IMG/VR virus record: IMGVR_UViG_3300045125_000034
Span: 1-64,000 of that record
From: a virus
Direction: 5' to 3' (one strand)
DNA: 64,000 nucleotides
The notes under the pieces were generated by a model that saw nothing but the letters and a program-made list of their open reading frames with translations, was not told the DNA's origin and did no database searches. Below are positions 10,780-41,659 of the stretch, piece by piece. The position numbers were made by a program, and so were the translations under genes. Every line of letters starts with the position of its first letter. The first letter of the stretch is position 1.

Positions 10780-11212
10780 CCGCCCTTTGCCCAATCGGCT
10801 AGATCGGGAGCGACTTTGGATTTTCATAAATTTCCTGACAAACGGGCTTTTGCTACGACCCAGTGTAATTATCTCCCAAAGCCTTGTGAAAAGCATTGTG
10901 CATATCATCCACCATTTCTACGAACTTATCGTAGTTTTCAGACCATTTGAGATTTTTTCCCGTAGGCATCCACCCATTTTCTCATGCTCACGGGTGATGG
11001 TCCGAACCTGTCAAAAAACAACTTGAAGGCTTTCATGAACAGATTGAAGTCCTTGAGTCCGAACAGAGTACGAAAGTCAATCCGCTTGACTTCGGGAACA
11101 CCATCGAATTCTTCTTACCCCCGTTGAGTTTCAGGAGCATGGTCTCGTATTCCACGGGCATGGTCTTGCTGCTCTTCTTGGCTTCGTCTAGGAATTCGTT
11201 GAATGAATGCAT
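10780..11212 (-). CDS. Putative internal head protein (capsid-targeting-like N-terminus); 3' end uncertain
   Basis: MHSFNEFLDE start, preceded by CTAAATA on the - strand (11218-11224). Confidence 0.5.
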
Positions 11213-12309
11213 AAGGATATTTAGGAAATGGGTTTGGCGGGAATAAGCCGTATCGAAATCAGCAAAGCATATAAATAAGTACAAATGCCAAGACAAACCC
11301 AACTATCCCCGCCAACGAGATTTGTTCCAGTATTTCATAGTTCCGATGTTCTTGGGGGCGGCTACAACTTGCAGAAATATTAGTCCTCGACAGAAGACCT
11401 AGATTCATTGCCGGTCCCGGTGGTGGCAGCGGTGGCGGGTTAGAAGTGACGGCATGCGAAAAGGCAGCAAGAGAACGATGCGGAATATCTTAAAATTCTC
11501 AATGATGCTTTAATGCGAGCCAATGAGGCAAGAATAGCGGCGTATGAAGAACTTTTCATTAGATTCTTGTTGGAGATATGCTGGCTTGGATATCGCTCAA
11601 GATATATGGGGTCTCATACAGGGAATAATTAACGAAATTTGGGCGGAAACACACGGGTATGCTCTCGCTGCTTTGGGTGTGGGAGGATTTACGGGAGGGT
11701 GGGATCCATTAAGAGATTACAGAAATTCGCCCTACCCCCGAAGATATTCCCGATCATGTGCGAGGCAGTCCTTGATGGGACGAACCACCAACGGGAATAG
11801 GAGATGATATCCCTGATCTCCCCGATGGAGTCCCACCGACCCCAAACCAACAAAACCACCTCAAGCACCACAAGACCCGAAAAAACTTGGGCAATGGTTG
11901 AAGAGAGGACTGGAGAAAGATTGTAGGCAAGGTTCCTGTAAAAGAATCTTTTGAAATAATCCTAAAGGTATTAAAAAAACTCGCACCTTGACTGGTTGGT
12001 TGCTGCTATAGTTGCTGCTTTCATCTATGAAGCACTCAGTTGGAAGAAGTTTTCGCAAGAGAGTTTGCGAGAATTCAATCAGATAAAAACAAGTTGGAAG
12101 AATGGCTAAGGCAGCAGTTGGCGTGTTGCAGAAGATCCAGGACTGTAATTCTAATGGTTCTAAGTGTCTCGCGCCATTCACCCCGGATTACCTGTTGAAC
12201 AATGGGAACAACCCGATGACGGTTGCCCAATGAATACCTGAGTTCGCCCTCAAAGAACTTGCACAATTTAGTGTGTGTGGTATACTGTCCATATTATGGA
12301 GAGCGACTA

Positions 12310-12984
12310 ATGGGAACCAATAATCACCGAGGGAAAGACTTTGGTATACAGGGTGGGTATCAATGATGTTGATGCCCCGACATGGTGGTGGGAAAATGGG
12401 AAAAGGGTTCTCTGCCCCGTTATAGTTGTTGGAAAAGTATGCTTGGACGGTGTTATATCATTGAAGAAAAAACAAGGCGTCCCTGTTACGATGGAGTCCC
12501 AGTTCATCCTGTTTGGCATCGTCTTTCAAGATTTATAGAATGGCTGAACACACAACCACAAACGAAGCTGGCGAGAACTTCAACTTGACAAAGACCTGTT
12601 GGTAAAGGGCAACAAGGTTTACGGTCCCGATACCTGTTGCTTTTTGACACACGCTGAGAATAATGTGTTTCGCCCACAAACTTCAAGTAAGTTAGGAAGC
12701 GTAAATAAAGGACAATAGGGGTTCACGAAAGAACCCTTGGAAGAGTCGGCTTATTGGTGCGTCAAAGTACAAAGTCTCATGCTGGCAAAACATGTTATGC
12801 GTTACTCCTCAACCAGAGAGGAAGCCGAGAGTTTGTAGCCATGCGGGAGTCCCTGACCCTCGTTATTGAAATTGCAAACGCCAATTCCCACCAGTTCATC
12901 CGCGATGCCATGTTCCCGATGGATAGACGATTGGAAGAAGGAATTGGTGCTGTTGGAGAAGCGGCTATTCAGGGCGACTGCTAA
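12310..12984 (+). CDS. HNH-family homing endonuclease-like protein (frameshifted)
   Basis: VGIND...YSCWKSMLGRCY...W..LSRFIEW...LDKDLLVKGNKVYGPDTCCF motif set typical of phage HNH endonucleases. Confidence 0.7.
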
Positions 12985-13768
12985 ACCTCAACTGCCGCTG
13001 TTTGAGTAAATGCCGTCCCTTGACTTTCTCAACCTGTATTGGGAGACCTGCGACTCTGTTAGCAGCATTCGCAAGAGTAGGCATTTTTGAAATTGGATGA
13101 CCTACTGACAGAACAGATATCAGGAGGTAGCCATCCGTGAGGATCCCATAGAGACCAAGTATAAGGGAACCAAGAGATGGGATATGCACTTTCCTGAGAA
13201 GAAGGTGGCTATCGAATACAAGACCTATCATCATTCAACAGTAAGGGAACAAGCGGGGGAGTTTGGGGAAGGGATTAGGTAACAGATTGGAAGAGGCAAT
13301 AGGTTCTGCCTTTGATCTCAAGAACAAAGATTCAAATTACAAATTGGGATATTTGATAGTCTTTGTGTTCAGGGATGAGAGTTCCAATTACGATACTGTG
13401 GTGAATAGGGCTATAGAGGTATTTGATAAATTGGTACGCGATGGGGTGTATGACTTCTTCTGCCCGCTGTTTACCGTGGGAAGGATAAGCATGGGGAACT
13501 GTCTGAGTTTACTCTTTCAATCGGTTTATTGGTGATATTGTGGCGGTCAGCCCACACATGCCCCACTTCCCCCACTAAAAACACATGGGGGAATAATACA
13601 ATTTTCGTTGTTCAAGTCTTGGCAGTAGGTAGGTCGCGTCGTCAAGGGCTAGTCAGGGGAATCCAAAAGATTCTACAAATTTTCTGTTGTCAAGGTCCGA
13701 CCGCAGATTATTTCAGATTTTTCCTGCCGCCTTTTTGTAGAAATCCCGCCAGAATTTTACCAAAGGGG

Positions 13769-13796
13769 TTGACACCGCCTAGCCATCGGTTATAAT
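13769..13796 (+). promoter_or_regulatory. Sigma70-like early promoter
   Basis: TTGACA-N16-TATAAT, 6 nt before ATG 13803. Confidence 0.8.
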
Positions 13797-13802
13797 TGAG
13801 GC

Positions 13803-15071
13803 ATGAGCATGACCCGTGAACAGACCCGTAACGCCTTCCTGACCGCCGCCTATGCCTTGGCTGGTGGCGATCCCGTGATTACCCGTCCGCAGGTTTTGGA
13901 AGCCGCCGCTAGTGGCGGTGTGCCGAACCCTGCGTGGTTGACCAACGACCCCGCCTACCGCGCCGGTCGTGGTCAGTACCGTCTGCCGCCGATGCACCAA
14001 GCGTCCCGTGCTGCCGCCCCTGTGGTCCCTGTGACTGCCGCCGCCGCACCTGTGACCGCTACGGCATCTGAGGAACAGCCTTGTGGACCTGAACCTGTCC
14101 ATGCAGGCGATTGAGTCGGGTGGGTCGGCGGTCCCTGCGAAGGATCCGCTGTTCGTGCCGTATGGCGACCATGAGACCATCGTGACCGTCATCAAGAGCC
14201 GCCGATGGACCCTCCTATGTGGTCGGTCCCTGGAGTTGCGGCAAGACCTTCTCGTATCAGCAGGCGTGTGCCGAACTGAGCCGCGAGTACTACGAGGTGC
14301 AGATTACCTCAGAGACCACCGAAGACGATCTGCTCGGTGGCTTCCGACTGGTGAACGGGGAGACCAAGTTCGTGTATGGTCCCGTCGCCCTCGCCATGAT
14401 CCGTGGGGGCTTCCTTGTCCTTGACGAGATTGACCAAGCGACCAACAAGGTGATGTGCCTTCAGCAGGTTCTCAACGGCAAGCCCGTGTTCCTGAAGAAG
14501 ATCAACCAATGGGTCAAGCCTCGCCGCCGGGCTTTCAATGTCGGGGCTACCGCCAACACCAAGGGCAACGGTGACGAGAGTGGCCGCTGGTGGTGCGAAC
14601 CCGCTGAATGTCGCCTTCCGTGACCGCCTCTCGGGCATGACCTTCGTCGCTGATTACCCTGCCGCCGCCGTGGAGCGGAAGATCCTGACTAAGGCTATGA
14701 CCGCCGTGGGCGTGGAGGACGAGGAGTTCGGTAAGCGTCTGGTGGAGTGGGCAGGAGCGATTCGCAAGACCAACCGTGAGGGTGGACTTGAGGAGACCAT
14801 CACGACCCGCCGACTGGTGCAGATTGCTCGAGAACCTCGCCATCCTCGGGAGCCGCGTGAAGAGCGTGGAACTCGGAACCAACATCTACGACGAGATCAC
14901 CCACGAGGCATGCTCAACCTGTACAAGAAGGTTGACGATGAGGCCGAGCCGAAGGTGAAGGGTCAGGATGAACTCGGTCAGGCTCCGAAGGGTCCGACCG
15001 CTGCGGGTACGACCGCTGCCGCTGCCGCCTCCAACAACAGGTGTCTCCCTTCTGATGGTTTACAACTTTGA
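13803..15071 (+). CDS. MoxR/CbbQ/CobS-like AAA+ ATPase (phage CobS type), frameshifted
   Basis: Walker A GPWSCGKT, ETTEDDLLGGFRLVNGET, Walker B LVLDEID, ATANTKGNGDESGR, LNVAFRDR, ITTRRLV. Confidence 0.9.
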
Positions 15072-15194
15072 AGTCTTCAGCAACGCACCGGTCACCTATA
15101 GTGGTCCCGATGGAATCTCGTTGACGAGCAAAGCCTTTTGGGTCCTCTCGGCTAAGGACTCGGTGGGCAACACTCAGGCAATCGTTTTTGAAAA

Positions 15195-15758
15195 GTGAGT
15201 GGCATCTGCAACGGCGATCCTGAGATGATGTTCCTCCACTCCTACCTGAACACCGCTGCCTTCCGCTACCGTCAGACGGGAGAGTACCACCGAACGCTTA
15301 ACTTGGTTGACACCGAAGATGCACGAATCCAAACGAATTCTGTTCCGTTTGGCTCTGCGTGGATGCGTGGATTCAAGCCGATGGAGTACGCCCGTCAACT
15401 TTACAACAACCTGCTTGAGTACAACAACTTTCAACTCACCAACCACATTGACTACACTCTACTCAGGAAGGATGGTCTGCTGATTAGTTCAGGCAGGTCC
15501 GCATACAATAGTTCCCCCGACTATAGTGTGTGGGTCAACGACAAGACCATCGTTCCTGCTGATGGATGGAAGTGTCCGGATCTTCTGCCGCAGAACCCAA
15601 GCCTTCAGGAACTCAAGAATGACATCGGCAAGTTTATTGAAAAGTTGAAGGCAGGAGTTGAACTTCAAACTGCGCTGCTACCACCAAGACCTACTACGCT
15701 CTTGACGCATAAGAAAATCGTCAGAAACCTCTTGACACCAAACCGAAACCTGTTATAA
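15195..15758 (+). CDS. Hypothetical protein
   Basis: 187-aa ORF with phage-like codon usage. Confidence 0.5.
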   Translation: MSGICNGDPEMMFLHSYLNTAAFRYRQTGEYHRTLNLVDTEDARIQTNSVPFGSAWMRGFKPMEYARQLYNNLLEYNNFQLTNHIDYTLLRKDGLLISSGRSAYNSSPDYSVWVNDKTIVPADGWKCPDLLPQNPSLQELKNDIGKFIEKLKAGVELQTALLPPRPTTLLTHKKIVRNLLTPNRNLL

Positions 15759-15759
15759 T
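15732..15759 (+). promoter_or_regulatory. Sigma70-like early promoter
   Basis: TTGACA-N16-TATAAT with extended -10 TG, then AGGAG RBS and ATG 15773. Confidence 0.8.
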
Positions 15760-15772
15760 AGGAGAAATCAAA

Positions 15773-16091
15773 ATGACTACGACGAACACCACCATCACGA
15801 TCAAGCCCCGTCAGAGCCAACTTCCTTGCCGCCCTTGAGGCAAAGTTCAGGCCGACCTGCGACCATCACCCGTAAGGCTCTTGTCACCTTCAAGCAGACA
15901 TGGAGTCAGGGTGAGATTGGTCCTCTCGGATTCGCTCTCCGTTGCCTGCGTGGCTCACGAACTCAAGCAACTTCACCGTTCAGCGAGCGGTCTATGCCCT
16001 CCCGTGGAATGAGTACGATGCATTCTTGGCTTCTGCATCGGGCGGTTCGCAGCCGAATACTCCCACGGATGCCGCTGATTCTGCGACCTAA
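15773..16091 (+). CDS. Small protein paralogous to the N-terminal domain of the AAA ATPase (frameshifted)
   Basis: FLAA...ITRK...PAWLTN...RAVYALP versus FLTA...ITRP...PAWLTN...RGQYRLP at 13803. Confidence 0.6.
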
Positions 16092-16255
16092 TGAGGGGAG
16101 CCGTGGCAACTCGGTAACGAGTAGCACCCCCGCTGCACAGGACTTTGAATCCTGTGGAGCAACCCCCTCGGAAGTTGAAAGACTTCCGAGGGATTTCAAA
16201 CCTAGTAGTGCCACCAAGGCCGGTTGCACTACGCATTCTCAAAGGAGATTTCACT

Positions 16256-16549
16256 ATGGCCATCACCACTTGCCGTCGTACCAACAAGAACCGTCGCTCT
16301 CGCGTTGCTGCTCAGAACCTCATGGAAGGCGATGAGTTCGTCATGCACGGCGAGCCGAACATCTTCGTTGAGAAGATCAGCCGCAACGAGGATCGCGGAA
16401 CCGTTCGCGTGACCTTCAGCAACGACATGAAGCGCACCTATTCGTGGGGCTACAAGGCTCTCATCATTGAGACCCTGAGCCGTCACAACTTCCGTCGCAA
16501 CACCCTGCGTCGGGCCGGTTACCCCAACTACTACGCCTATGGTATTTGA
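16256..16549 (+). CDS. Hypothetical basic protein
   Basis: AGGAG RBS; MAITTCRRTNKNRRSR... ORF. Confidence 0.6.
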   Translation: MAITTCRRTNKNRRSRVAAQNLMEGDEFVMHGEPNIFVEKISRNEDRGTVRVTFSNDMKRTYSWGYKALIIETLSRHNFRRNTLRRAGYPNYYAYGI

Positions 16550-16771
16550 CACTTTATATCGGACTTCAGATACCAAGCATCGCGTCTTGGGTCTCTAGTC
16601 CTACATCACTAAATTACTGGTTGGTGGATGGGGGCTAGGCAAATATAATGAACTCCTGTGGAAGTGCCTAGACCCCCTACCGCCGGCTGGACAAAGAAAA
16701 GGCTTCGGCTCTGCCCCTGCTTCGGCGGGGGCTATTTGTTATCGGACTTTGTAAAAAACTTGATCGTGGGG

Positions 16772-16799
16772 TTGACTTTCCCTGCCGAGTCGCTATAAT
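16772..16799 (+). promoter_or_regulatory. Sigma70-like early promoter
   Basis: TTGACT-N16-TATAAT before ATG 16809. Confidence 0.75.
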
Positions 16800-16808
16800 A
16801 AAAGAGTA

Positions 16809-19521: not shown

Positions 19522-19559
19522 ACCCCTGTAGGTGTAAGAGCCTACGGGGTTTTTGTTTT
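19522..19559 (+). terminator. Intrinsic terminator closing the early island
   Basis: ACCCCTGTAGG-loop-CCTACGGGGT-TTTTGTTTT. Confidence 0.7.
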
Positions 19560-20016
19560 AACGCTAAATTCAAATTTCAAACTTGAATTCGAAAAGGGAG
19601 CGTAGTCGCGCCGGAAAAACGACCCCCTGTTTTAGTTTTGCGAGCGGCGGGTTCCCATGCAAGCAAGGGCCGAGTGCCGAGAATTTTTGAAGTCCGCAGG
19701 TTCGCCCAAATAAAGACCCCCCTTTAGTTTACCTTGTTGATTTCAGTTGCCCCGAAATGCCTTTTACCCCCGAGGTGAAATTATTACAAAACAGGTCGAG
19801 TCCTAAATATCACTATGCCAAAGCAACAACAAATATATGCTTCTGTGTCTACATCTAGGACTAATGTTCCTCGTATTCCCGTAGTTTCTTTGACTAATAA
19901 TGACAACCCACAGTCATCGGTTCCCCCATCTGATCTTCGACAACAAATAGATGCCAGTAGAGCAATGAGTTACTTGATGGGCAGGTACGGTAAATCAAAT
20001 TCCTAAATACTTTACC

Positions 20017-20406
20017 ATGAAGTCCTTCAAGCAACACATCTCTGAAATGTTCGTCACTTGGGAGGAACTTGGCCGACTTGAGAGAGTCCTTGACAATATG
20101 TTCGCTCAGGTTGGATTGGACATCGCCTTCACCAAGCACTTTTGGGAACGCATCAACGGTAGCCGAATGTATGGTGGTACTGTCAGCATCGTGGATATCA
20201 AAGATGCTTTCAACAAGACCTTTCAGAAGTATGCCAAGCAGATTGTTACAAAGCCGGTGAACTGGACGGCAGTAATCAACGATGTCAGCAAGGGTCTGAA
20301 CATGCCCTTCACTCTAGCATGGGACAAGATCGGTAAGCGTATGGTGATGATGACCGCCATGAAGAAACATGACTTCAAGACTCCCGATCCAAAGTTGAAG
20401 GTTTGA
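20017..20406 (+). CDS. Putative internal head protein; possible RelE/RegB-like (BECR) RNase fold
   Basis: MKSFKQHISE leader, CTAAATA at 20003; IAFTKHFWER motif. Confidence 0.55.
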   Translation: MKSFKQHISEMFVTWEELGRLERVLDNMFAQVGLDIAFTKHFWERINGSRMYGGTVSIVDIKDAFNKTFQKYAKQIVTKPVNWTAVINDVSKGLNMPFTLAWDKIGKRMVMMTAMKKHDFKTPDPKLKV

Positions 20407-20413
20407 AAAAAAA

Positions 20414-21061: not shown

Positions 21062-21172
21062 GTGTGAGTACAAGCGTAACGGAGGAACAGGGCCGGATCC
21101 CGATGGTTGGAATCAAGATTGGTGCAAGCCTAAAGGTAATAAATAACAGAAGCGGTATCGGAAGGAACAACC

Positions 21173-22030
21173 ATGAAGAACTACTTTGATTTGATGCAGC
21201 AACTCAACGAGGTCGCCAAGGGCGGAACGGTCCCTTGGGCAGGCAAGACACGCGGTCCCTTACTTCAAGGGTAAGAGCGGCATGGACATGTTGGCGGGAG
21301 TTGAAGCCGACGCTAGACTCTATGCCCAACGCATGAAGGAGATGCAACCCATCTTCGCTGCTATTGATGACTACAAGGCAGGCAAGCCAGTTTCCGATGC
21401 CATGATGAAGTTGATCGCTACCCTATATCAAGCAGTTGGGAATCAAGCGTGGCACTATGGCCGGTCCTGCTGCAAAGACTCCCGTGGCTACCCGTCCTCC
21501 ATTCAACTGGACAACAGGTGGAGCAGGTTGGTGGCATCCGATCAAGCAATGGTTCCGCTTCAGCCACGACGGCGATAACTACCATGTGACTCAGGTCTAC
21601 AAGAGTCCCGAGAAGTTCGGCATCACTCACAACGAGGTCAGAGCAGTCATCAAGGACTACATCATGAATACACGGGGGGACTATCTTGTTGATAGACTCA
21701 GAGCGAACATTCACTTAAAGAGACTAACAATAGATCAGGCAGTCTTGGAGTTGGGGCAGGAAATCTATAGTGGTAGTAGAGACATCTTCAGACCTCTACA
21801 GAAGTATGTCTACAACCGTGGATGGCTCAAGATCTATGGTGGGCGTGACTGCTACTTGGAGGGAACTATGGAGTCCTCTTTGAAGGCAGCGATGCGTGAG
21901 ATCATCAAGTCCTATGGTGACAAGACCGACTACAATGTAGAGGTCGCTTCACCACAGACCAACAGACGAGTACCCAAATAGCAAGTACTACAACAGACAG
22001 TCTTCCCGCGAACAGTACGCTTCATAATGT
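21173..22030 (+). CDS. Putative internal head protein (frameshifted)
   Basis: ATAAATA at 21139; MKNYFDLMQQLNE leader. Confidence 0.5.
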
Positions 22031-22033
22031 TAC

Positions 22034-23543
22034 ATGGTACGGTTCAAGTCATTCATCGCTGAGTCCAAAGGTATTCAGCCTGCCCGTGTTCAGGCAGGCG
22101 AGATCATCTTCACGGACAAGCAGAACAATGTGTGGCTTGCAACCGAGTGGCACTACTTCAAGCGGTTTCTAGATCCCAACAGCAAGAACGAGAACCCCGA
22201 ATATCTGCGAGCGGTGCAGATGGCTAGCACTCTCGTCGGCGGTCAAAAGGCGAACCCCAAGGGCATCGTCCTCATCAAGTTGACCAACGACAACAACGCC
22301 AGCATCACTCTTGCCCGTTACACCACGACACCTGAAGCCCCAAGCAAGATCGGCAACGAGGAGTTCTCGCAGGCGGGCTATGAGCGTAGAACCAAGATGG
22401 GCGGTCAACTCTCTAGACTCTCCTCTAATGATCTACTCTTAGGTCACACGCCCGTTGAAGTCCTTCGCGTTGCAGACAACAACATCCCTCACTATGTCTT
22501 CCATAACGCGAACACTCTGCGTGATAGAATCATTCGCAACATGCAGTCAAGCAAGTTCAATGTGCTGCTCCGTGAGCCATCGGTGATCCAAGCAACCAAG
22601 GAGTTCTTGTGATGGTGGGGCAACACACTTTGATTGGTCCAAGGTTGGTCAGTTGATGAACACACAGGACCGCATCAAGTTCGGCATCTACCTTGCATCA
22701 GAGTTGGGCTATGCCTTTTGGGTTCTATCGGGCAAGAGCATCGGTGCATTCCCCGGCATGTCCATCATCAAGTTCTTCGCAGTCCCAACCGACAACACCA
22801 ACACCTCCTATGACTCCTACCTCCGTGGTGTTCTCAAGGGAGGCTCAGGCATCGCAAACCCTCATGGTGTCCTCCAAGACCATTGCAGGCAAGAAGGGTG
22901 GAGCAAGGTCAACGATCCTCCCTGCTCTCAACGGCATGGCAAAAGGCATCGCCAACTATAACACACTCAACAACAAGTTCTTGGCGGCGTTGCTTCCATA
23001 CTTCAAGGAGAGTGCAACGGGCGGAAGAACCATCTACCCGTTCATGATTGAGAAGGTGCTTGGTCTCAAGGGAGTGATCCCTGAGCCTGTCGTGTTTGGA
23101 ATCGCATCTGCAAGTTGCATGAGAAAAGAAAAGGCAAACTGACAGACGCAGAGATGGCAGAACTTGAGAAGCAAGTTGTCGCGGTGCAGAAGAAGGTTGC
23201 ATCAGGAGTCGTGCTGCCGGGTATCAACAAGACAGCACCACTCAACCACAACGCTGCTCGCTATCCATCTCCTCCACAATGGAAGGAGTTCTCTCGTTAC
23301 ATCTCTGACATCTTCTGTGATGCGATCTGCTTCGGTCTAAGCTCCGATGGTGCATCAGACATGAGACCAACCATCTCATGGCAGATAGACATGGACATCC
23401 GAGAGTTCACCCGCACGGGCATGGTCAACTACATCATGAAGGAAGTCTCGCAGGAGATGAAGGGAATGTACATTGACGGAGGCAAGCAGTCAGCAGGCGA
23501 TCCGTCACGCAACATCACATGGCTTGGAGCAAGACCGCTATGA
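22034..23543 (+). CDS. Large putative internal head protein (frameshifted)
   Basis: MVRFKSFIAE leader; ORF fragments 22034-23543 are contiguous. Confidence 0.6.
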
Positions 23544-24527
23544 GATCCTTCTCTCAACACATCAGCGAGAAAGCAAGTTGGATCCTCGTCTTGTTCCAAC
23601 AGGACCAACCTTGGATGAGAAGGGCATGAGTCTATGTGAGTTGCTAGCAGGTAGCAGAGAACAGTTCATCAAGCACTACAACGCGATAGTCAGGGGAGAA
23701 TACATGTCCACAAAAGAGAACATGCCCCTGTTTAAGTTGAGTACGCATGCAGGACAGTTCATCAAAGCATTGGCACAATGGTTTGACCAAGCAGGAGGCA
23801 AGAAGGATTGGTTCCTTCCACTCTTGATGGAAGCAGGTAAGTGTTCAGGCAGAGGACAATGGACATACCACACAGGCAAGGTTTACCGTGGAGTTCTGAA
23901 GAGTTTGGAGAGTGTAGACTTTGTGTTGGAAGACAAGTTTGCTAGTATGCCCGATGCAATGACGGGAGAGTTCTTGGTTGGAACAGCAACATACAAGAGC
24001 ATCTACCCAATGCAGTCGTGGTCTACCAAGGCAGAGGTAACCTTTGAGTTCGCCAACACCGACTACAACAGAAGTGTTCAATGGTCCTACCTTGAAAGGT
24101 AGAAAGAAGAGTACTCAATGATCTTTGAGACTGTACTGCCAAAGAATGAAACCTTTCTCAAGCGACAACATCACTTCTGTATATAGCAAGGTCTAATGAA
24201 TACGAAGTCCTCCGTATCGGCAACGCCCCACTCAAGTGCAAGGTGTACATATGGTATGATTCGTTTCAAAGATCTTGTTGGGATAGTTTAGTTGAAACAG
24301 CAATGGCAAACGATCTAGCAAATGCCATGAGAAAAGAGTTCAACAAGGATGACCCAACGAAGACCAAGCATGACAAGTCCAAGAAGGTGTTGAAGAAGAT
24401 ACTCTCAAAGAACTTGGGGTTTGGCGACAAGGGAGCGGAGTTCCTTGTAGAGAAGACGAAGTTCTACAAGAACATCATTATCAAGATGAAAGTCTTGTTT
24501 GTTGATCTCAATGAGTATCCGATATGA
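23540..24527 (+). CDS. Capsid-targeted R-S-E class ADP-ribosyltransferase (Alt/Mod-like), frameshifted
   Basis: MRSFSQHISE leader; KVYRG, QSWST and NEYEVLR motifs in order. Confidence 0.65.
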
Positions 24528-25370
24528 AACGCTTCACCCACTACATCAACGAGATCTTCAACAGCCCACGGGTCCGAACACTTGGAAGCGAGTGGCTGTG
24601 TCCACCAACGATGCTGCGAACTACAAGTTCACTATGGCATTCGTAAACGGCGGCTACGCATTGGCTCCTTCATGCTGCAAAGAGTTGGTTGACTTCTATG
24701 AGAAGAATGGAATCATGATAGATGTGAAGAGGAGTACTAGTTGCTACGTGACATGTACACATACAAGAAGGGCAACCCCGACCGACCAGACACCCCGACC
24801 GTACTTGATGGTCTAACCTACATGGTTGGGTTTGCATCCTTCAGTAGTGCCGTCATCAGGGGTTGACTACGGTAGCCTGTTCTCTCTGCGTAACAAGAAC
24901 ATCCCCCAATGTCTGCTTCCGTCATTTGGAACAACTGTTATGAGATGTGGTTCAGCGCAGATGATTCTGTTCTTGGATTCCCCGAAGGATTGGTAAAGGG
25001 TCATGCATCCAATAGCCTTGGGTGGGTATGCTCACGCAAGGACTGCCTTGGTACGGACGATGACTTGGGAGTGATGAGCGGGTCTGCGGCTATCTCTGTC
25101 TTCAATGCGTTGTTTGCAATCATTGAAGACTTCATCAAGACCAAGAGACCATCGGGCATCATCATAGGAAGTAAAAGCGGAGCCAAGGGTTCTAGGTCTG
25201 CCATCTACAAGCGTATGGGCAAGATGGCTGCACAGAAGTTTGGCGGTCAGTACTATGATCTAGATCAATACAGAACTCCACAAGCCCGAGAGGGTCTGAT
25301 GCATGGAGTATTTGTAACTTTGGGAGTACGCCCAAAGACCTTCTTACTGCACCATCACAAAAGTAAATAG
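24524..25370 (+). CDS. Putative internal head protein (frameshifted)
   Basis: MKRFTHYINE leader; C-terminal FAIIEDFIK..P....SRSAIYKRM. Confidence 0.55.
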
Positions 25371-25378
25371 GGGGACAC

Positions 25379-25775
25379 ATGTACGAGTACTCAATATCAG
25401 AAGTAGTTAAGGTAGTAGACGGAGACACACTAGAGGTGGTCTTTGATGTCGGCTTCAGTATGTTCTGCAAGCAGCGTGTGCGTCTAGACGGAATAGACAC
25501 ACCCGAGTCATTCACATCCGATGCCAACGAAGAAGTTTGGGTTGGAAGCCAAGGAGTTCCTGAAGGAGTGGGTCAGTAAGCAGAAGAAACTTCGTGCCAA
25601 GACAACCAAGGATGACAAGTATGGTAGAATCCTTGCTCGCATCTACGGCGACAATCCCGATGTCTGCATCAACGACGAGATGATAAACAAGGGTTACGCT
25701 TGGGGCTACGACGGCGGTACGAAGCAGAAGGACTTCAACCACCTGCTAGAACAGCGTAAAAAGGCAGCAGTCTAA
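25379..25775 (+). CDS. Thermonuclease (SNase-like) family protein
   Basis: VVKVVDGDT, RVRLDGIDTPE, DKYGRILA, INDEMINKGYA. Confidence 0.9.
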
Positions 25776-26287: not shown

Positions 26288-26295
26288 TATAAATA
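26288..26295 (+). promoter_or_regulatory. T4-late-like promoter
   Basis: TATAAATA upstream of AGGAG RBS and start 26308. Confidence 0.7.
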
Positions 26296-26307
26296 GGGTA
26301 CAGGAGA

Positions 26308-27730
26308 TTGTCTATGTACAACTATCAGAAGAGATTGCTAGAGGAATCCGTTGCACTACCCCAGAAGGAAGTCGTTCTAACTGAAGGGGTTGTTGATTTT
26401 ATCAAGAACGCTCTCAAGCGTGAACCCCTTCTTTCACAGATCATGGCTCTCCGTGCTGCCAAGGATAAGTTGAGCAAGGTAGAGTATCAGAAGAGAGTAG
26501 AAGCCATCAAGTATACAGCTGCTACCTATCTCTTCAAGGGTTCGGCTCTCGCCACGATGGGTCTGACACTAGCACACAAAACAGGATTGATGAAGGTCTT
26601 GGACAAGGTAGTTCATCACATAGCAAAAGATCCACACCACGCAACTGAGATTGACCATCTCATACACTCTGCGTTGGGTGTGGTAAAGGTCTTTGCAGAA
26701 TACACCCCCGAAGGAGATACTTTGGAAGAGGCTCCTGCTGCAACGGCAACAAGTAAAGACTACAACTCAAGAGTCATGTCTGCTATGGCTATAGTCAAAG
26801 CAGTAAAGGAAAAGGCAAAGCAACTTGGAGTGAGAGTGGATGCCGATGGCAAAACCGTCACTTGCACCAAGGAGTTCACCAAGGGCGACAACAATGCATT
26901 CCGTCATGCATACGATGCTTGCTACAGCGTCATCTGTCTGTTCAAGTTCACAAAGAACAGTAACCTGTGGGGATGCTCAACCGCAGGCTTCGGCGTAGGA
27001 CACAGGAGTGCATCAAGAACGGACGCATAGTTCTAAACAAAAGTGGAGATGGGACACAACTACAGTTCAGAGGACTCAAGCGGTGGTCTGTACCTCTCCA
27101 ACGGAATGCGATTGACTGAAGAGAACCTTGAAGAAGCAATGCAGATTAACGAACTTAGAGCAGGAGATACCGTCAAGGTTCCGCACAACGGTAAGATGGT
27201 AAAGGGCAAGATTGTTCGTTACGATGATGGAGGAACAAACAAGGCACGACAGTCGGGTGGTGGTTATGTGGTTGATGTTGGTGAACCAGCAAGCGTACTT
27301 GTACCAGCCCCACAAGATTGTCAAAGAAGCCATTACTGTAGGGGATATTTTGAATAGCAAGAAAAAGCCAGAGTGGAAGTTTGTAACAAAACTCAAGGAG
27401 TGGAGTGGGCTTCGTGAGTTCCTAAACAAGAGCGGAGCGATTGAATGGCTAAAAAGTGTGGGCTATACTAATGTCAACTATGATTATGTTAAGGCACAGG
27501 TTCTAGGTAAGAAGTATTACGCTCCATGTGCAATCATTCACACGGCAATATACGACCCATCAGCAAACGGAGATGTGTCGCACAACATCGTGGCTCCAAC
27601 CCAAGGGGTTTTGGATCAGATGTCATGGACATATAAAGGTCTTGAGAAGATCGCTCCCGGCAAGAGAGGCGAGAAGACTTTCAGTACAGGCATGAAGATC
27701 GTAGCAACAATATTAGCAGTAGGAGAGTAA
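26308..27730 (+). CDS. Multidomain putative internal polyprotein (frameshifted), includes an SH3/Tudor-like module
   Basis: Repeated LLEE, VLTE, TLEE, LTEENLEE, INE sites; LRAGDTVKVPHNGKMVKGKIV module. Confidence 0.5.
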
Positions 27731-27885
27731 TCATGGGAAGAGTTAGAGATGCAAGCAAGTCGTTTGGATGCAAGGGGGTTACAAGACTCGCAAAGAGATC
27801 CAAGGGCATTTCCCGTGCAGGATTACCAAAGATATACGCACCATGCTTCTGATGGTGGCATAGCAAGAATGCAAACGAAAGCAAA

Positions 27886-28014
27886 ATGAAATCGTTCAGG
27901 AAGTTCTTGGAAGACAAATGGAGTAAGGACTATAAGAAGTCTATCAACTGCTCCAACCCCAAGGGCTTCTCACAACGCGCCCATTGTCAGGGCAGAAAGA
28001 AGAGAGGTAAGTAA
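27886..28014 (+). CDS. Small basic putative internal head peptide
   Basis: MKSFRKFLED-KWSKDYKKSINCSNPKGFSQRAHCQGRKKRGK. Confidence 0.65.
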   Translation: MKSFRKFLEDKWSKDYKKSINCSNPKGFSQRAHCQGRKKRGK

Positions 28015-28301
28015 TATGCAGAATCGTAGATTCATCGCACCAAAGTTTCATGAGAGACCACAGCCCGTAAGTCCTTTGAGTGCTCCTCAGCCAGAGGTGG
28101 TGGAGGAAATTAAACAACCCGAGACTCATGTTGAGACTCCCGTGGTTGAAGATAAGAAGACACCAAAAGACAAGAAGCAGAATTGAAGTTGATTTTTGCT
28201 GCGAAAACGGCATAACAACTTTTAATATCTCCTCTTCTCCCATCGTGTATACTACATACATGACCATCCAAATCGGGTGGCACTTATAAGGAGAAAGAGT
28301 A

Positions 28302-29058
28302 ATGACACGATTCTTTAGATACCTCGCCGCTGTAGCCGCAGTAGTTTTGGCAAACAGCACTTTTGCACAGACTGCTTCGGCTCCTGCTCCGAAGGCATCA
28401 CCTTCTATCTTCAGCGTAGTCTCGGTTGATGAGACCTTGACTTTCTGGGGCAAGAAGAATGTTGATACTGTTACTGAGTTGGACTCAACCGTTAAGGGCA
28501 AGTTGTTTGATCTTATCGGTTGGCATGTGACCGTTCCTGTTTACTCACAGGACTACATGGGTTACGGTGCTATCGACATCGGTGCAGACTATGCTCTGTT
28601 CGCGGCGAGAAGTTCCTTGGCTCAGTCACCAACTTCAGCGTTGAAGCGGGTGCATGGTTGCCAACAGGTTCAGCAGGTTACGGCACAGACAATGTTAACC
28701 CCCATGTCGGATTCAACTACGACATGACTTGGGGCTAGCGTAGTCTACACGCAGTCCTTCGACTACCTTTGGGTAGGTGAGGTTGCTTATAGCCCCGTGT
28801 TCGGCAACTACAACAACTACGGTCTCAACGCCGAGTCGTTCGTTGCTTACAATTTCGGTGCAGTTTTTGGTTGGTGCTGACCTCAACCAATGGTACACAA
28901 GTGGCTCAAATGTAGCCTTCCTTGGACCCAAGGCTGAGTGGAAGGTTTCCAACAATGTTGAAGTCAACGCAGGCTTCGGTGTTCCCGTATGGCAGGAAAT
29001 CAATGCTGCAAACGAGAACAGTTGGAATGTGACCGCAGGCTTGTCAATCAACTTCTGA
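28302..29058 (+). CDS. Outer-membrane beta-barrel-like protein (frameshifted)
   Basis: Sec signal peptide (MTRFFRYLAAVAAVVLANSTFA), amphipathic beta-strands, C-terminal ...VTAGLSINF. Confidence 0.65.
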
Positions 29059-29158
29059 TTTGTAAAAAAGCAGGTTACGAGGGGGGTGGAGGAGACTCCA
29101 CCCCCTTTTCATTTACATAAATAGATAGAGTCAAGATGTTTACACGAAAGGGGTAAGT

Positions 29159-29587
29159 ATGATACCTACAGAATTGATTTCAATGGTTGGTGGTTCGGCT
29201 GTCGGGTTCCTATTCCGATTCATGGCACAGAAGTCACAGGATCAGAAGGAACTATTTCAGCAGATGATTACTGCTAACAAGCAGACTACAGAGAATCAAG
29301 ACAAGGCAGTACAGAGAGTTCCGTTGGATGTTGGCAAGGGCGTTCGCCAACTAATCGTACTATCGGTGTTGTTCGCAACCTTCCTCGCCCCATTTGCCCT
29401 ACCGTTCTTTGGCGTTCCCACCTTCGTTGAAGTGGATGCAACTCAAACCAATTTCTTTGGAATGGACACCATGAAGAAGTACTTCGTGGAAATTAATGGT
29501 TACCTGTTCACTTCAGAGAACCGTCAGATTCTACTCAGCATTATTGGATTCTACTTCGGCTCTGCTGCCGCAGGTAATAAGTCATAA
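29159..29587 (+). CDS. Membrane protein (holin-like)
   Basis: Hydrophobic segments; C-terminal SIIGFYFGS; CATAAATA upstream. Confidence 0.55.
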   Translation: MIPTELISMVGGSAVGFLFRFMAQKSQDQKELFQQMITANKQTTENQDKAVQRVPLDVGKGVRQLIVLSVLFATFLAPFALPFFGVPTFVEVDATQTNFFGMDTMKKYFVEINGYLFTSENRQILLSIIGFYFGSAAAGNKS

Positions 29588-29597
29588 GGAGCCACAC

Positions 29598-29892
29598 ATG
29601 AAGTTCATCAACAAACTAATCACAGTAGCATGCTTGGCAGCGTTGTCGGCATGTGCATCAACCAATCCAGAGATCGTTCCTGACAATACATCAGACAGCG
29701 TAATCCTTAAGAAGATCAACCACGAAATTCAGAGCGGCGAAGTCTTCAAGACAGGATGGCAATGGATCCTATGGTATCTTCCTTTCGTGTTCCTCGTAGT
29801 CTCATGGGGATGGAGACAGTTCATCAGAATGCCAATTCATTGTGATGAGCCGTGCTGAGCCGAAGAAAGAAGAAGAAGAGAAAAAAGAATGA
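29598..29892 (+). CDS. Lipoprotein with C-terminal TM segment
   Basis: MKFINKLITVACLAALSAC lipobox. Confidence 0.6.
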
Positions 29893-29965
29893 AACGAATG
29901 AGACTCCTTCTGCATGATTTGATTTTGGGTTACTGACGCAAACTTATATCGGGGGGTATAGGGCA

Positions 29966-30779
29966 ATGGCCGAAGGAAGTCTGTTGGTCATAATCATGAT
30001 TCATGCGGTAACTGTCGGAAGATTAAGGATGCTCAATGCGAGGAAACCCGCAAGGCTTTGGAGCAATGCAATAAGGCTTGGGAGGAGGCACAAGCCGAAT
30101 CACAGGATGCTCTTGAGAAAGAACTAGAGGAAGCCAAGACAAAGAACAAGTCTTTGCAGAAGACTATTACTGCGTTTCAAATTGCAACGACCGTGGGAGT
30201 TACCCTGCTAGGGCAAGAAGTCTTTGATAAGATCATGGACAAGGTTAACTCTGTAACCGGAAGTCAAAGCCAAGATCACAGGGGAAGTCGCAAAACCCGC
30301 AGAGAACAAGACCGAGACCAAGGGCAAGACTGACGGCAAGAAGTCAGTCTCGTTTGGTTACGGTAGCAGCAGTAACATTATGACTGCTAGTAGGTTTGCT
30401 TCTTCGGGTGCGGCTCAGTACATCCCGCGATTCACAATCACAGGAAAAGACCCGAGCCTACCCACAGAGTTGACGATGCTAACACCACCGTCATCAAACA
30501 CAACCACCATTCTAGACGGTCAGGGAATAGGACTTCCGCTTGTCCCGCCCGTGATTAAGCAGCAGGCTACCGCCGCTTCTATAGATTGGTCAAAGTATAT
30601 CGTTGCTAACGCAACGCCACCGATTGAGGCTGTTGTTACGACATGGGGTGGAGCCGATTGGGACGATTGGGCAGGAGGAGCAGCAACACCGATGTTGGTG
30701 TCGGCGATCCTGTTCCCGCCCCACACGGCATTTCGGTATTCGCACTCAGTCTAATCAACAGCCCAGAAGAAGGGCATAA
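29966..30779 (+). CDS. Coiled-coil/membrane protein with PEP-CTERM-like tail (frameshifted)
   Basis: Ends VPAPHGISVFALSLINS(P)RRRA*. Confidence 0.5.
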
Positions 30780-30791
30780 GAAAGGGGAACA

Positions 30792-31424
30792 ATGAACAAG
30801 ACACTTGCTACGGCTATCACTACACTCGCACTTTCCGCATCGGCATCCGCAGACCTTGTTGATGGTAGTTTTGAAGGTAATGATATTTACTACGGTTACG
30901 GATTTCTTCAAGGAGGAATTGATACTCCTTGGAGGACTACCGCTCCTGATAACCTGATTGAAATTTGGGGAGAGTATATGCCTACTCCTGCATACGAAGG
31001 AACTCGTCATGCAGAACTAAATGCAAACTACGCATCCACACTCTATCAGGATGTCAACGGATTGGGCGACAACAACACAATCAACTGGCACTTCGCTCAC
31101 CGTGGTCGTTATGGTACAGACACCATGAAGTTGACCATCACCGACTTAGGTGCTGACCAACTATGGGAGGCGGCGATGACACGACACTATTCCAACAAAA
31201 CTTCTCAGCCGATGACGCGGCATGGCAAGTACACTATGGCTCAATTACTTCTATTGGTAACAATACTCGTTTTGCTTTTGAAGCCGTGAGTGCTGTCGGG
31301 GGAACACTCAAGGCAACTTTATAGATTGGTGTGGATTTGGAGCAAATGTTTCCTATTCCAACACGCGGGGCAATCTCCCTTTCTGGGTTTGGGTTTCTTC
31401 ATGGGTACTCGCAGAAGAGCCTGA
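30792..31424 (+). CDS. Secreted PEP-CTERM protein with carbohydrate-binding-like (NGSFE-type) domain
   Basis: Signal peptide, LVDGSFE, HAELNAN, FAHRGRYG; tail IPT(P)GAISLLGLGFFMGTRRRA*. Confidence 0.75.
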
Positions 31425-31486
31425 TTTCATTTGTATTTCTTGGAGAGGGAGGGGAACCTCCCCCTTTTCATTTCATAAATACCCTT

Positions 31487-31796
31487 ATGAAATCCTTCAG
31501 GCAGTTTATAAAGGAAGAGAGACTCTGTGCCAAACAGCACAGGAATGTTTACCTATGGTTTTGGGATTTCAGACGGATATGGTCCCTTCTGATTTTGATG
31601 TTGAGGACTTCACCGACACGGATGAGCCAAGGAAGCGTAAGCACCTGCCGTGGGAAGTTGAAAACGCCATTGAAGCCAACAGCAGACGGGATATGATTCT
31701 TCGTTGGATGAAGAGTGCAGTAGCCAACAGCTGAAGAAAGCAGTAACTAACAAGTCCTTGCCACTAACTCCCGATTGGCAGACTACCAAGAGATAA
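31487..31796 (+). CDS. Putative internal head protein (frameshifted)
   Basis: CATAAATA at 31474; MKSFRQFIKEE leader. Confidence 0.5.
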
Positions 31797-31827
31797 ATAG
31801 GATACACCCCTTTCAAGGACACTAAAC

Positions 31828-34241
31828 ATGAGCGACTTTAACTTCCGTAAGCCACTATCCTCGCAAAAGAAGAACCTCAACGAAGCCCTCCAGCACATCA
31901 ACAGGCTGTACAACAACACCCTGTCTGCCGGTAGAGTTGATGTCGTTGGCATGGAACTCAACGAGGCAGAGAGAAGACCATCGGCAAAGTCACCTTCACT
32001 CCATATAAGGAAGGCAAAGTTCGGTTTGGATAGTCAAGGGAAAGGGCGGAAAGGAGATTGGTTTCATTACCATAGTCAAAAACCGCCTCAACCACCGTAC
32101 CCAACCAGTTGTACTTGGGTAGTCAGGGCGAGGAGAGAGTTGGCTCTCAACCTGTGGCCCGAAAGTTGGAACCCCACCCACGGGCGGGTACACGCGGGAG
32201 TATGTCAAGTTCAAGCCCAACCAAATGTTGCAGGCAGCAGCAAAGTGGATCATGGACAACCACAAGGAGTTGGTAGAGGAGGTTGTGGGTGAAGCCAGGA
32301 AGACCTCAAGGTAGTCAAGAAGGGCAAGGCAAAGACAGAGAAGAACAAGACATCTGAGTTCACGCCGGCGACAAGCGTGGCATGAACCGTTTTGTTGAAG
32401 AGGAAGAGGTAGAGGAAGTAGAGGATGTTGAGGAAGAGGTAACCGAGGGTGTTCGCTTTATGGCAGGTGCAGAGACCATGATTAAGAATGCGGGCGGATC
32501 ATCTATGGTCAGCAACTTCCCGCAAGATGTCTCAACTTGATTCAAAGCCAACAGGAAGTGTCATTGTCTTCACAAGCGAGAAGAATCCCGAGTCTTCGGA
32601 GATCAGGGTGTACAGCCCAAGCGATTTCCAAAACATGGTAAAGGGTCTATCAAAGAAGGTAGAGCCAAAGGTTGGTTCTAAGGGAAGTTGGTCGGACGGC
32701 GAAGTGACCGTCATCGGCATCAAGAAAGCGTTGAACCTATTAACGAGAAGTACTACAGAAAAGCCGATCCAACCCAAGCAATGCACATTCCCGCTAAGTG
32801 GGTCTATGAAGACTTCTTCAAGAAGGTTAAGACAAGCGGTGTAATGTTCAATCAACTCAAGGCAGAAGAGGCTCTTGAGGATACATTCGCAGGGATCGGT
32901 CAGGTACAAAGGTATGCAAAAAACTAGAACAGTAGGTGAACTACTGTGAAACTCCTTCTCTACCTACAAGAGATACATGGACATCAAGGAAGAAAACCTA
33001 AACGAGGCAGATTGGTGGTCAAGTTCAGGAACCATTGACAAGAAGACAGTAGACTCCTTCTTGGATGATTTGGAATCCGCGTACAAGAAGGGCGGAAAGA
33101 GAGCCAAGGTTGCCAAGACCGATGGAACCGTAGAGGGATTGGCTTGATGATTACAAGGATTGGTTCCGCCGCGCTCCCAAGAACCTCATGGACTACATCA
33201 AGTCAGAGATTGCAAAGATGGGCATCAAGGAATCCCTTGGAACCTATATGGCTACCTCCGAGGCTCGCATTCCGTTCAAGAAGATTCTCAACAATGTAAA
33301 GGACATTCAGGGACCATTCACAATCGTGGTTATGAAAGCAGATGGACCCCGGCACTAATGCAGAAGAAGGTAAGTGGTGCTGCTGCCATCCCTGCCCACA
33401 TCAATCACATGTTGGATGGAGATCTAAAGAACAAGAAGTGGAAGGCTATCGCTATTGAGACTGCTAGTGGCAAGATCGTAAATGTTCTTCATCCATCAGA
33501 TATGAAGAAGGAAGAGGTTGAGACAGAAGGCGAAGACCTAAGCGAAGCCTATATCAGCACAGAGCAGATCAAGGCAATCCGCGATGACTTGAAGAAGGAA
33601 CACCCACAGTTCACCTTCATGGTTGCTCGTCGTGCAAACAGTTACTCGTCAATCCGAGTAGCAATCGTCAGGGGACCAGTTGCCTTTGCTTACAAGGCAG
33701 ATGGAACTCCCGAGCCTAATGTGGACATCAACCACTATTGAGCCTGATAACTACAAGAACAGCCACATCCTCAAGAAGATTCTCAAGACCATCAACAAGA
33801 AGAGCTGGGATAGAAGCGACATATCAACGGACTACTTTGATGTTGGTTTCTACCTTGATCTGACCCAAGGCAACAATACCTACGGTAGCCAAAGAAAACC
33901 ATTTGAACTAACAGGAGCAAGAAGACTGCTCCGAAGTCTACTCCTGTTGCCGTGACAAAGAAGAAGGTTGATGATATAATCAAGAGAATCACCACTAACA
34001 CCGTAGCAAAGGGTCAGACTAAGACTCCCGCAAACGCAGGTCACGCACAGAAGAAGTCTCCATTCAACTCTTACTTTGAAGAGAAGGAAGGTGGAGATGA
34101 GATCAATGAAGTCTCGCCGCCATCGGTCCTGCTCGCAAGTTCAGCAAGGATCCCAAAGTCAAGGCTGATTTCAAGAAGAAGTATGGAGAGCGTTGGAAGG
34201 AAGTAATGTACGCCACCGCATGGAAGATGCACAACAAGTAA
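31828..34241 (+). CDS. Large multidomain putative internal polyprotein with an LPD29-like domain (frameshifted)
   Basis: Modules separated by NLNE, ELNE, EVTE, DLSE, EINE; IRDDLKKEHPQFTF...SSIRV...DISTDYFDVGFY; C-terminal VSPP...FKKKYG.RWKEVMYATAWK. Confidence 0.55.
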
Positions 34242-34475
34242 GGAGAAACACACTGGCTAGAAGAAGTTGGTTAGCATAGCAGTCACTCCCGAATACTTTC
34301 TACATTTCTTTCCCGTAGGAACGGTTATTGACAGACCCGGACTTCCTCTGTTGAAGGTGTCCGATGCTGCTCCTATGTTGGACGGCAACATCTCTGTTCA
34401 GTTTGAAGTATCAAACAGCATGACCCGAGCGAAGCACACATTTGGTGGCACGAACGGGGAAAACGGCATTCCGTT

Positions 34476-34890
34476 TTGAAGTCATTCTTCGCACATCTAA
34501 CAGAACAGGAACAGGCTCCACGACCAAAGCCTGTGTATTTCGTCAGTCGTTTTAACATCAGCGGAACTGTCGTGAGTGCGGTGGCGGTATACGATACACT
34601 AACAAAGAACTACAAGAGCCGCACCAAATTTTGGCGATGGCGGGTTCGCATAAAAGACTAGCGAAGGATGGATGCTGATGGGTTACATCGGCAAAACACT
34701 ACAGCAGAAAGAACTCCCGCCTCTTCGTGTAGGAGATGTTGTGGAGGTTCAAGATCTTGTTCTGTCTGATATAGCTGGTGGAAATTGGGCATTAAATAAC
34801 AAGGTAACAGGGAACCCTATTGACTATCGCTCTAATCTGTTTTCTCGTCAACTGCACGGCAAGATCAAACGAACTTCAACACCTGTATGA
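34476..34890 (+). CDS. Putative internal head protein (frameshifted)
   Basis: MKSFFAHLTE leader. Confidence 0.45.
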
Positions 34891-41545: not shown

Positions 41546-41581
41546 TTGACAATACTTGGTTAGATGCTATACTACCTGTAT

Positions 41582-41655: not shown

Positions 41656-41659
41656 TAAT

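Follow-up and report, generated by a model that had tools for sequence, protein, structure and literature searches.

The internal protein IPI of bacteriophage T4 is an anti-restriction protein. T4 internal proteins are basic (PMC9026906), and diverse internal proteins of T-even phages that share only their targeting sequence have already been described (PMC3012670, PMC9026906). Suppressor analysis of the IPIII tag assigned targeting mainly to residues 4 and 7 and processing to residues 8 and 10 (PMC9026906, section 2.6), and an Asp at position 10 blocks processing but not targeting (PMC9026906). The ADP-ribosyltransferase Alt is likewise packaged into the T4 head, is injected and modifies the host RNA polymerase (PMC9026906, section 2.3). 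The DNA analyzed here (the window) comprises the first 64 kb of a linear IMG/VR viral contig of 145,204 bp (IMGVR_UViG_3300045125_000034), in which a set of otherwise unrelated genes shares a short N-terminal leader. This shared N-terminus probably acts as a T4-like propeptide for capsid targeting and processing. Genes that carry it are referred to as tagged and are designated by their start coordinate, and the sequence behind the leader is called the cargo.

The contig belongs to a T4-superfamily myophage with cobS/cobT-like genes, a sliding clamp, a DNA polymerase and 14 tRNA genes, and its completeness was estimated by CheckV at 67%. Judged by protein similarity, the closest cultured phages are Paraglaciecola Antarctic GD virus 1 (PANV1), Methylophilales phage Melnitz (Kyanoviridae) and the Sinorhizobium phiM12 group. 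Three uncultured contigs (L002, L003 and L004) are closer than these; L004 is contained in a 168-kb contig, G001, which is 93% complete and encodes a major capsid protein with 37% identity to T4 gp23. A further relative, the 10.6-kb metagenome contig L018, was obtained by a metagenome scan with the 22034 protein, which had given no match in a scan of viral contigs; L018 shares approximately 82% DNA identity and synteny with window positions 18.4-26.8 kb.

The original prediction listed nine leaders, and all of them were found as described, at 20017, 22034, 23540, 24524, 27886, 31487 and 34476, at 11212 on the minus strand and, in a looser form, at 21173. Two details required correction. The peptide at 34476 is present but its start codon is TTG and not ATG, and the final Glu of the proposed consensus is found as I/L-x-E in eight of the nine leaders, whereas 27886 ends in Asp. 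The leaders had also been said to precede unrelated sequence. An all-against-all BLASTP of the cargos (E <= 0.01) returned only orthologous pairs between genomes and zero paralogues, which agrees with this description, although some of the following sequence had been read in the wrong frame.

A scan of N-termini in the contig and its relatives showed that the motif is enriched at start codons and retained on orthologues. A loose version of the motif occurs at 12 start codons of the 145-kb contig, compared to a mean of 0.4 and a maximum of 2 in 30 second-order Markov shuffles of the contig. With a matrix trained only on the leaders of relatives, 8 matches of at least 12 bits were obtained where 0.2 were expected, and a start codon is present at eight of the nine positions that reach this score. 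A 13-residue form (M-K-x-Y ... L/I-x-E) was found three times in the contig and not once in 20 shuffles. Its members are 21173 and two genes that were absent from the original list, 10250 on the minus strand and 34887; beyond the window, 68315, 71322 and 76657 were added, and 26314 probably carries a further variant of the leader. Overall, the contig has at least 14 tagged genes, and at least 11 of these are located in a 25-kb part of the window. The information content of the leader-coding sequence is 1.04 bits at first, 1.25 bits at second and 0.66 bits at third codon positions. As third positions are less informative and synonymous codons vary, the conservation was assigned to the protein level: the leader is conserved as an amino acid sequence.

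The start sequences of the T4 genome record (NC_000866) were read side by side with the leaders of the window. IPII and IPIII start with MKTYQEFIAE, the peptide that the original prediction named as the T4 packaging sequence, and IPI starts with MKTFKEF. The overall 10-residue pattern of the leaders is M-K/R-S/T/R-F/Y-x-x-F/H/Y-I/L-x-E. Most conserved are positions 4 (Phe), 8 (Ile/Leu) and 10 (Glu), followed by position 7 (Phe/His/Tyr); among ten leaders compared, position 4 is Phe in all and position 7 is Phe, His or Tyr in nine. These invariant or near-invariant positions (Phe/Tyr4, aromatic or His7, Ile/Leu8, Glu10) coincide with the positions mapped in T4. Since Asp10 in T4 stops processing but permits targeting, the product of 27886 (...FLED) may, by this analogy, be packaged uncut.

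The homologues of three cargo families allowed us to follow the leader across phages. Among 72 homologues of the 23540 protein, nearly all full-length members start with MK[DST][FY]..[YHL][IL].E/A (the slash marking the predicted cut) or with a 9- or 13-residue variant. Members of the 22034 family have N-terminal extensions of 10-24 residues that vary in sequence and always end in [LIVM]-x-E before a conserved [SA][KQ]G[VI]. The 20017 family (20 homologues) has a constant leader, a conserved domain and, between the two, a hypervariable linker of 0-35 residues. In addition, orthologues interchange 10- and 13-residue leaders between phages. As the leader is kept while extensions vary, as [LIVM]-x-E abuts the conserved body and as leader lengths are swapped, the pattern is that expected of a targeting and cleavage signal and not of a structural part of the proteins.

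Evidence from virions is available for one tagged enzyme family. The cytidyltransferase T4-GC190 of cyanophage S-SM1 (SSM1_190) starts with MKKFSAFLNE and gp184 of Syn9 with MKKFSAFLSE. The report on S-SM1 lists T4-GC190, a "putative citidylyltransferase", among the proteins that purified virions contained (Sullivan et al. 2010, PMC3037559, section 26). This phage group thus has at least one tagged enzyme that is a physical component of the particle. Tagged members of this family are found in Syn9, Melnitz, G001 and the present contig (68315), and homologues occur in hundreds of cyanophages. T4-GC190 and the contig share the wider phage group and the leader, and the enzyme family heads the tagged polyprotein encoded at 68315, which lies beyond the window and outside the range of the original prediction. 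In section 26 of that report, the authors do not link the presence in virions to a targeting leader, and no N-terminal processing is described there (PMC3037559).

A prohead protease of the Peptidase_S77 family (PF03420) was detected in G001 (E 1e-33) and PANV1 (E 8e-46), and in PANV1 a leader gene (MKSYQEFLVE) is located between the prohead core and protease genes. The Pfam search of the contig returned no match to PF03420 or to PF07068 (gp23); the contig, at 67% completeness, lacks the head module. The capsid protein of G001 contains an L-R-E/S site near the position of the maturation cut of T4 gp23. A cut of this capsid protein after residue 7 (ISE) was also considered and was dropped, because its alignment with T4 gp23 begins at residue 1 and includes a propeptide region of full length.

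Boxes of the sequence NTAAATA, which resemble the T4 late promoter, were found 18 times on the plus strand and 4 times on the minus strand of the window. As proposed originally, several leaders follow such a box, which is located directly upstream of 20017, 31487, 11212 (minus strand) and 21173. The other tagged genes directly adjoin the gene before them or overlap it, an arrangement that may allow co-transcription. An ATG exactly 5 nucleotides (sometimes 6-7) after the box, without a Shine-Dalgarno sequence, was observed at 2142, 19803, 31475 and 11224 (minus strand), and the same spacing occurs at contig position 76643 and at several leader genes in L002, L003 and G001. Within the window, 4 of 22 boxes have their ATG at exactly +5. 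Provided that transcription is initiated in the same way as at T4 late promoters, the resulting late mRNAs would be leaderless or nearly so.

By analogy with T4, the following course of events can be proposed. The tagged genes would probably be expressed late in infection, and the 10-residue leader, or its 13-residue variant ending in L/I-x-E, would anchor the protein on the scaffolding core while the prohead is being assembled. A prohead protease of the gp21 type (Peptidase S77) would then cut after the Glu, and the mostly basic mature protein would remain in the head together with the DNA, which it would very probably accompany out of the head at infection. The leader is portable, as it is found on at least 11 unrelated cargos of 42 to approximately 500 residues in the window. 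One of these, a predicted ADP-ribosyltransferase, would act like T4 Alt and modify proteins of the host once it has entered the cell. The 30-nucleotide leader-coding sequence also marks the edges at which cassettes are gained or lost between related phages.

The predicted ADP-ribosyltransferase is the cargo of 23540. In an alignment of 35 family members, R189, Q229-S230-W231 and E286/E288 are invariant or at least 90% conserved, and the broken copy in the window retains YRG, QSWS and EYE. The AlphaFold model of the family (predicted local distance difference test score, pLDDT, 89.4) consists of a three-helix N-terminal bundle and a mixed domain. For this domain, Foldseek placed the Vis toxin at ranks 1-2 (E 8e-3, probability 1.00), with further matches to Tre1, C2-I, cholera toxin A1 and ExoS; VIA-align of residues 118-308 gave Z 7.1 for Vis (root-mean-square deviation 3.7, 146 residues aligned) and Z 6.3 for Tre1. 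As these fold scores are moderate, the assignment is carried by the agreement of the motifs, and the cargo is predicted to be an ADP-ribosyltransferase of the Arg-Ser-Glu-x-Glu type, to which T4 Alt, ModA and ModB belong along with Vis, C3 and toxins resembling cholera toxin. No Pfam ADP-ribosyltransferase family, no PDB sequence and no homology to T4 Alt, ModA or ModB was found for the domain, and the family is a predicted new family of these enzymes. It resembles T4 Alt in that an Arg-Ser-Glu-x-Glu domain stands behind a Glu-ending N-terminal propeptide in a T4-like phage. It differs in its size of approximately 325-359 residues, in the three-helix bundle and in its nearest solved folds, which are those of bacterial toxins (Vis, Tre1). 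T4 Alt, with about 680 residues, is far larger than the 23540 cargo.

The remaining cargos are diverse and mostly without assignment. Their bodies range from 32 residues (27886) to approximately 490 (22034). Of 19 tagged proteins examined in the window, L018 and G001, 18 have an isoelectric point (pI) of 8.9-10.5 in their mature form; for G001, nine of ten tagged proteins have a pI of at least 8.9, compared to 29% of the open reading frames of the genome (p ~1e-4). Pfam and PHROGs searches with the cargo pieces of the window and the intact G001 orthologues gave almost no assignments. The exceptions are a match to NT5C (deoxynucleotidase type) on one tagged G001 protein and phrog_23027, a group of unknown function, for 20017, besides matches below threshold to DUF6934, LEF-11 and LPD29. 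PDB sequence searches with the cargos gave no match, and the ESM Atlas returned only clusters of viral hypothetical proteins. Structure prediction, which had been suggested for the cargos, led to the ADP-ribosyltransferase fold in the 23540 family and was less productive for the 22034 family. Its 501-residue alpha/beta model is confident (pLDDT 81), but Foldseek gave no match below E 0.2, and the best VIA-align score (Z 4.8) was to a small CarD/EF-P-like N-terminal barrel, so that no fold can be assigned.

Comparison of the relatives indicates that the leader and the cargo domains are modular. In the window, in L002 and in L018, the 20017 domain forms a protein by itself behind a leader of its own. 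Its G001 version follows a second domain in a fusion protein that has only one leader, and this second domain is a separate tagged protein in L002; in phiM12 the 20017 domain forms the C-terminus of a 602-residue protein that lacks this leader. L018 has one extra tagged gene precisely between the orthologues of 23540 and 24524, inserted at the leader of 24524. At the junction in the window, one leader is preceded by the sequence found upstream of the first leader in L018 and followed by the sequence found downstream of the second. As both ends of this one-gene indel fall inside the leader, cassettes appear to be gained and lost by exchange within the 30-nucleotide leader-coding sequence. G001 furthermore fuses several modules of the window into proteins of 1081 and 1201 residues. 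Two regions homologous to the 1081-residue protein (27130-27327 and 32454-32739) are 5 kb apart in the window, and a weak match to the "large polyvalent protein" domain LPD29 was noted at 33160-33738 (24.4 bits, with a cut-off of 27 bits). The modules of a polyvalent protein seem to be dispersed here as separate genes. Polyvalent proteins of phages and conjugative elements are said to have been described by Iyer, Burroughs, Anand, de Souza and Aravind in 2017. Like them, the tagged proteins would be multi-domain effectors of shuffled modules that are delivered together with DNA; unlike them, most modules of the window are separate genes, each with its own leader, and the LPD29 match is below threshold.

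The reading frames of the contig required particular care. The longest open reading frame anywhere in it does not exceed 562 codons. Alignment with intact homologues revealed about 40 frame changes in 39 kb of aligned coding sequence (24 base gains and 16 losses), that is, approximately one frameshift per kb in both directions, and in-frame stops also occur inside conserved genes. Examples are located at 44367-44451 (clamp), 53360-53420 and 54200-54215 (DNA polymerase), 14100-14600 (cobS) and 22610. As intact versions of the same genes exist in G001 and L018 and as a database protein (P0083, 92% identical), the breaks are most likely indel errors of the assembly and not biology, judged by this comparison. 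Seven of the nine originally listed genes are broken (21173, 22034, 23540, 24524, 31487, 34476 and 11212), and their products therefore cannot be read directly from the window. The extents of broken genes were rebuilt by orthology, intact orthologues were used for annotation and folding, and any gene model from this record needs a homologue as a check. An alternative genetic code or quadruplet decoding was rejected as the origin of the short open reading frames, since frame changes go both ways and removal of any single stop codon gave no specific recovery of long open reading frames.

Several observations weigh against a targeting and processing propeptide. The contig, a 67%-complete fragment, contains no gene for a prohead protease, scaffold or capsid protein. 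These genes are missing because the contig is incomplete, and the protease therefore has to be taken from relatives. Only four of the nine genes have a promoter-like box of their own. Position 10 of 27886 is Asp, which blocks processing in T4, and the residue after the Glu varies (M, S, K, I, E, Q, A or T) where T4 IPII and IPIII have Ala. The products of most tagged genes are unreadable in the window itself. The fold match of the ADP-ribosyltransferase is moderate (Foldseek E 8e-3, Z ~7), and a tblastn search with this domain against 50,697 phage records, including T4 with Alt, gave no match. Finding T4-GC190 in virions of S-SM1 is no proof that its leader brought it into the particle. For the present phage, we infer by analogy with T4 that the tagged proteins are packaged, cleaved and ejected, and on the same ground the cargos may act in host takeover or anti-defence. 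The proposal of a T4-type targeting and processing leader with exchangeable cargos was supported by every computational test that was run.

Other explanations of the shared N-terminus have to account for the same data. It could be a recognition tag for different machinery, such as a modifying enzyme, a chaperone, secretion or degradation, which is unlikely: the leader is nearly the T4 targeting sequence, with agreement at the functionally mapped positions, and the L/I-x-E protease motif directly precedes conserved mature N-termini. A tagged enzyme is, moreover, virion-associated in S-SM1, and no partner enzyme was seen to adjoin the tagged genes consistently, although no systematic test for one was made. 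If anything a little less likely is a role of the first 30 nucleotides as a translation-initiation element or as a recombination boundary of cassettes, with an incidental peptide. Here, the gene-sized indel between the window and L018 does end in leader-coding sequence, several ATGs lie 5-7 nucleotides past a box, and the first codons may matter for near-leaderless mRNAs. However, conservation is much lower at third codon positions than at first and second ones, several codons are used for Ser, Lys, Ile/Leu and Glu, and the peptide pattern is kept in 72 and 20 homologues of two families with many substitutions within the same residue class; a shared coding tag would yield recombination at the leader anyway.

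Descent of all tagged genes from one old paralogous family, with bodies diverged beyond recognition and no need for a targeting function, would suit their clustering, common strand and common promoter type. It is very unlikely in view of bodies of 32 to approximately 490 residues and of predicted architectures as different as an ADP-ribosyltransferase, an NT5C nucleotidase (G001), a cytidylyltransferase polyprotein, a helical bundle and an alpha/beta fold. The boundary between leader and body is also sharp, linkers are variable, and one domain stands alone behind a leader in L002 and the window but is fused under a single leader in G001. Poor assembly or chance open reading frames are hardly credible as the source of the pattern. 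The frameshift rate of about one per kb and the many spurious overlapping open reading frames would invite such an explanation, but it is already refuted by the relatives, whose orthologues are intact: the same leaders are found in G001, L002, L003, L018, PANV1, Melnitz, Syn9 and S-SM1, and 12 occurrences were observed where shuffles give about 0.4.

A propeptide of the T4 kind, which we regard as the probable explanation, would not be a new idea as such; the combination of one tag with diverse cargos is known, and the window would extend this T4 trick to a distant lineage. Within the collection of papers searched, none describing the tag in cyanophages or other aquatic T4-like phages was found. 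The likeness to the T4 internal proteins consists in a near-identical 10-residue tag ending in I/L-x-E and in unrelated, mostly basic cargos, and their setting with a gp21-type protease is shared by the relatives G001 and PANV1. The differences are those of lineage and scale. The present phage is a distant uncultured aquatic phage near Kyanoviridae and Melnitz-like phages and is known here from sequence alone. Where T4 has three internal proteins plus Alt, it has at least 14 tagged genes on the contig, at least 11 of them within 25 kb. Its cargos are often large (up to approximately 500 residues, and approximately 1000-1200 in a polyprotein), and a 13-residue leader variant is used interchangeably.

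If the tag works as in T4, a ten-residue motif would predict which proteins of uncultured T4-like phages are carried in the head and enter the host first, a class to which IPI and Alt belong in T4. The window would add about a dozen candidates, nearly all without a known family, and the presence of a cyanophage cytidylyltransferase in purified particles would be explained. The value of the locus would lie in its list of cargos, with a new ADP-ribosyltransferase family and about ten proteins without assigned fold or function, and in injected proteomes that are read from sequence. As a more tentative and wider possibility, the tag may be an ancient portable address label across the T4 superfamily (coliphages, cyanophages and uncultured freshwater phages), placed here on cassettes that turn over fast and are exchanged within the 30-nucleotide leader, and forming a library of effectors for takeover and counter-defence in the first minute of infection. 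The injected proteome of any such phage could then be read from sequence alone, and the cargo set would include the new ADP-ribosyltransferase family, the 500-residue protein without a recognizable fold, a nucleotidase and polyvalent polyproteins.

Table 1. Coordinates of the tagged genes; a slash in the leader marks the predicted cut.
Position	Strand	Leader	Gene and product	Box and homologues
9780..10250	-	MKTYEDILEMLSE/AKG	13-residue leader; broken by frameshift; outside the range of the original prediction	Orthologue is a 176-residue G001 protein with a 10-residue leader
10725..11212	-	MHSFNEFLDE/A	Body broken over several frames, end uncertain	CTAAATA box 11224-11218, 5 nucleotides upstream of the ATG; no homologue found
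20017..20406	+	MKSFKQHISE/	Intact, 129 residues	CTAAATA box 20003-20009; homologues with leader, variable linker and conserved domain
21173..21981	+	MKNYFDLMQQLNE/	13-residue leader; ~270 residues by orthology; two frameshifts	ATAAATA box at 21139; orthologues in L018 (280 residues) and G001 (232 residues)
22034..23543	+	MVRFKSFIAE/SKG	~501 residues; broken at ~22610, internal stops	92% identity to intact P0083 across the first 192 residues
23540..24527	+	MRSFSQHISE/	~325 residues, several shifts or stops; predicted ADP-ribosyltransferase cargo	
24524..25370	+	MKRFTHYINE/	~276 residues by orthology; broken	L018 8352-9182
26314..27030	+	MYNYQKRLLEE	Probable variant leader	ATAAATA box at 26289; surrounding pieces homologous to the 1081-residue G001 protein, which has a similar-looking start
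27886..28014	+	MKSFRKFLED	42 residues; leader ends in Asp; 32-residue very basic module, pI 10.5	Module 86% identical to the C-terminus of a 97-residue G001 leader protein
31487..31796	+	MKSFRQFIKE/	~100 residues across three frames	ATAAATA box (31475), ATG 5 nucleotides downstream; leader kept in L002, L003 and G001 orthologues
34476..34890	+	(M)KSFFAHLTE/	TTG start; the stop at 34890 is probably reached in frame 1	No homologue found
34887..35014	+	MKSYKQLKWDLGE/S	13-residue leader; ATG overlaps the previous stop; body broken	

Coding potential is unusually poor in window positions 1-14200, where open reading frames are very short, and a frame-tracking model scored 8438-14192 as non-coding despite at least two tagged genes on the minus strand of this region, which may simply be the worst-assembled part. 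ARAGORN reported a tRNA at 41581-41656 with a four-base anticodon (taaa) in an 8-nucleotide anticodon loop. As the contig is full of homopolymer indels, the loop is most simply explained by an extra A and not by a frameshift-suppressor tRNA.

Some neighbors of the tagged genes deserve mention. A block at 28302-31289, between tagged genes, encodes proteins with signal peptides, a lipobox and membrane helices, none of which had a Pfam match; its members include 28302 (MTRFFRYLAAVAAVVLA...), the lipoprotein-like 29598, the membrane protein 29159 and 30792 with a signal peptide. Directly after tagged genes, a staphylococcal-nuclease-like gene with one frameshift was identified at 25379-25775 (Pfam SNase, E 3e-14). 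It has a GTAAATA box upstream and starts with MYEYSISE, which contains I-S-E, and judged by this start the protein may carry a short propeptide. Black's laboratory reportedly packaged this class of enzyme into T4 artificially. A second shared N-terminus, M-P-K/R-Q-x-Q, is found on small, partly Cys-rich proteins beside tagged genes, at 19815, 20414 and 11285 in the window and at 1872, 2541 and 2961 in L018, and may represent another family or another tag.

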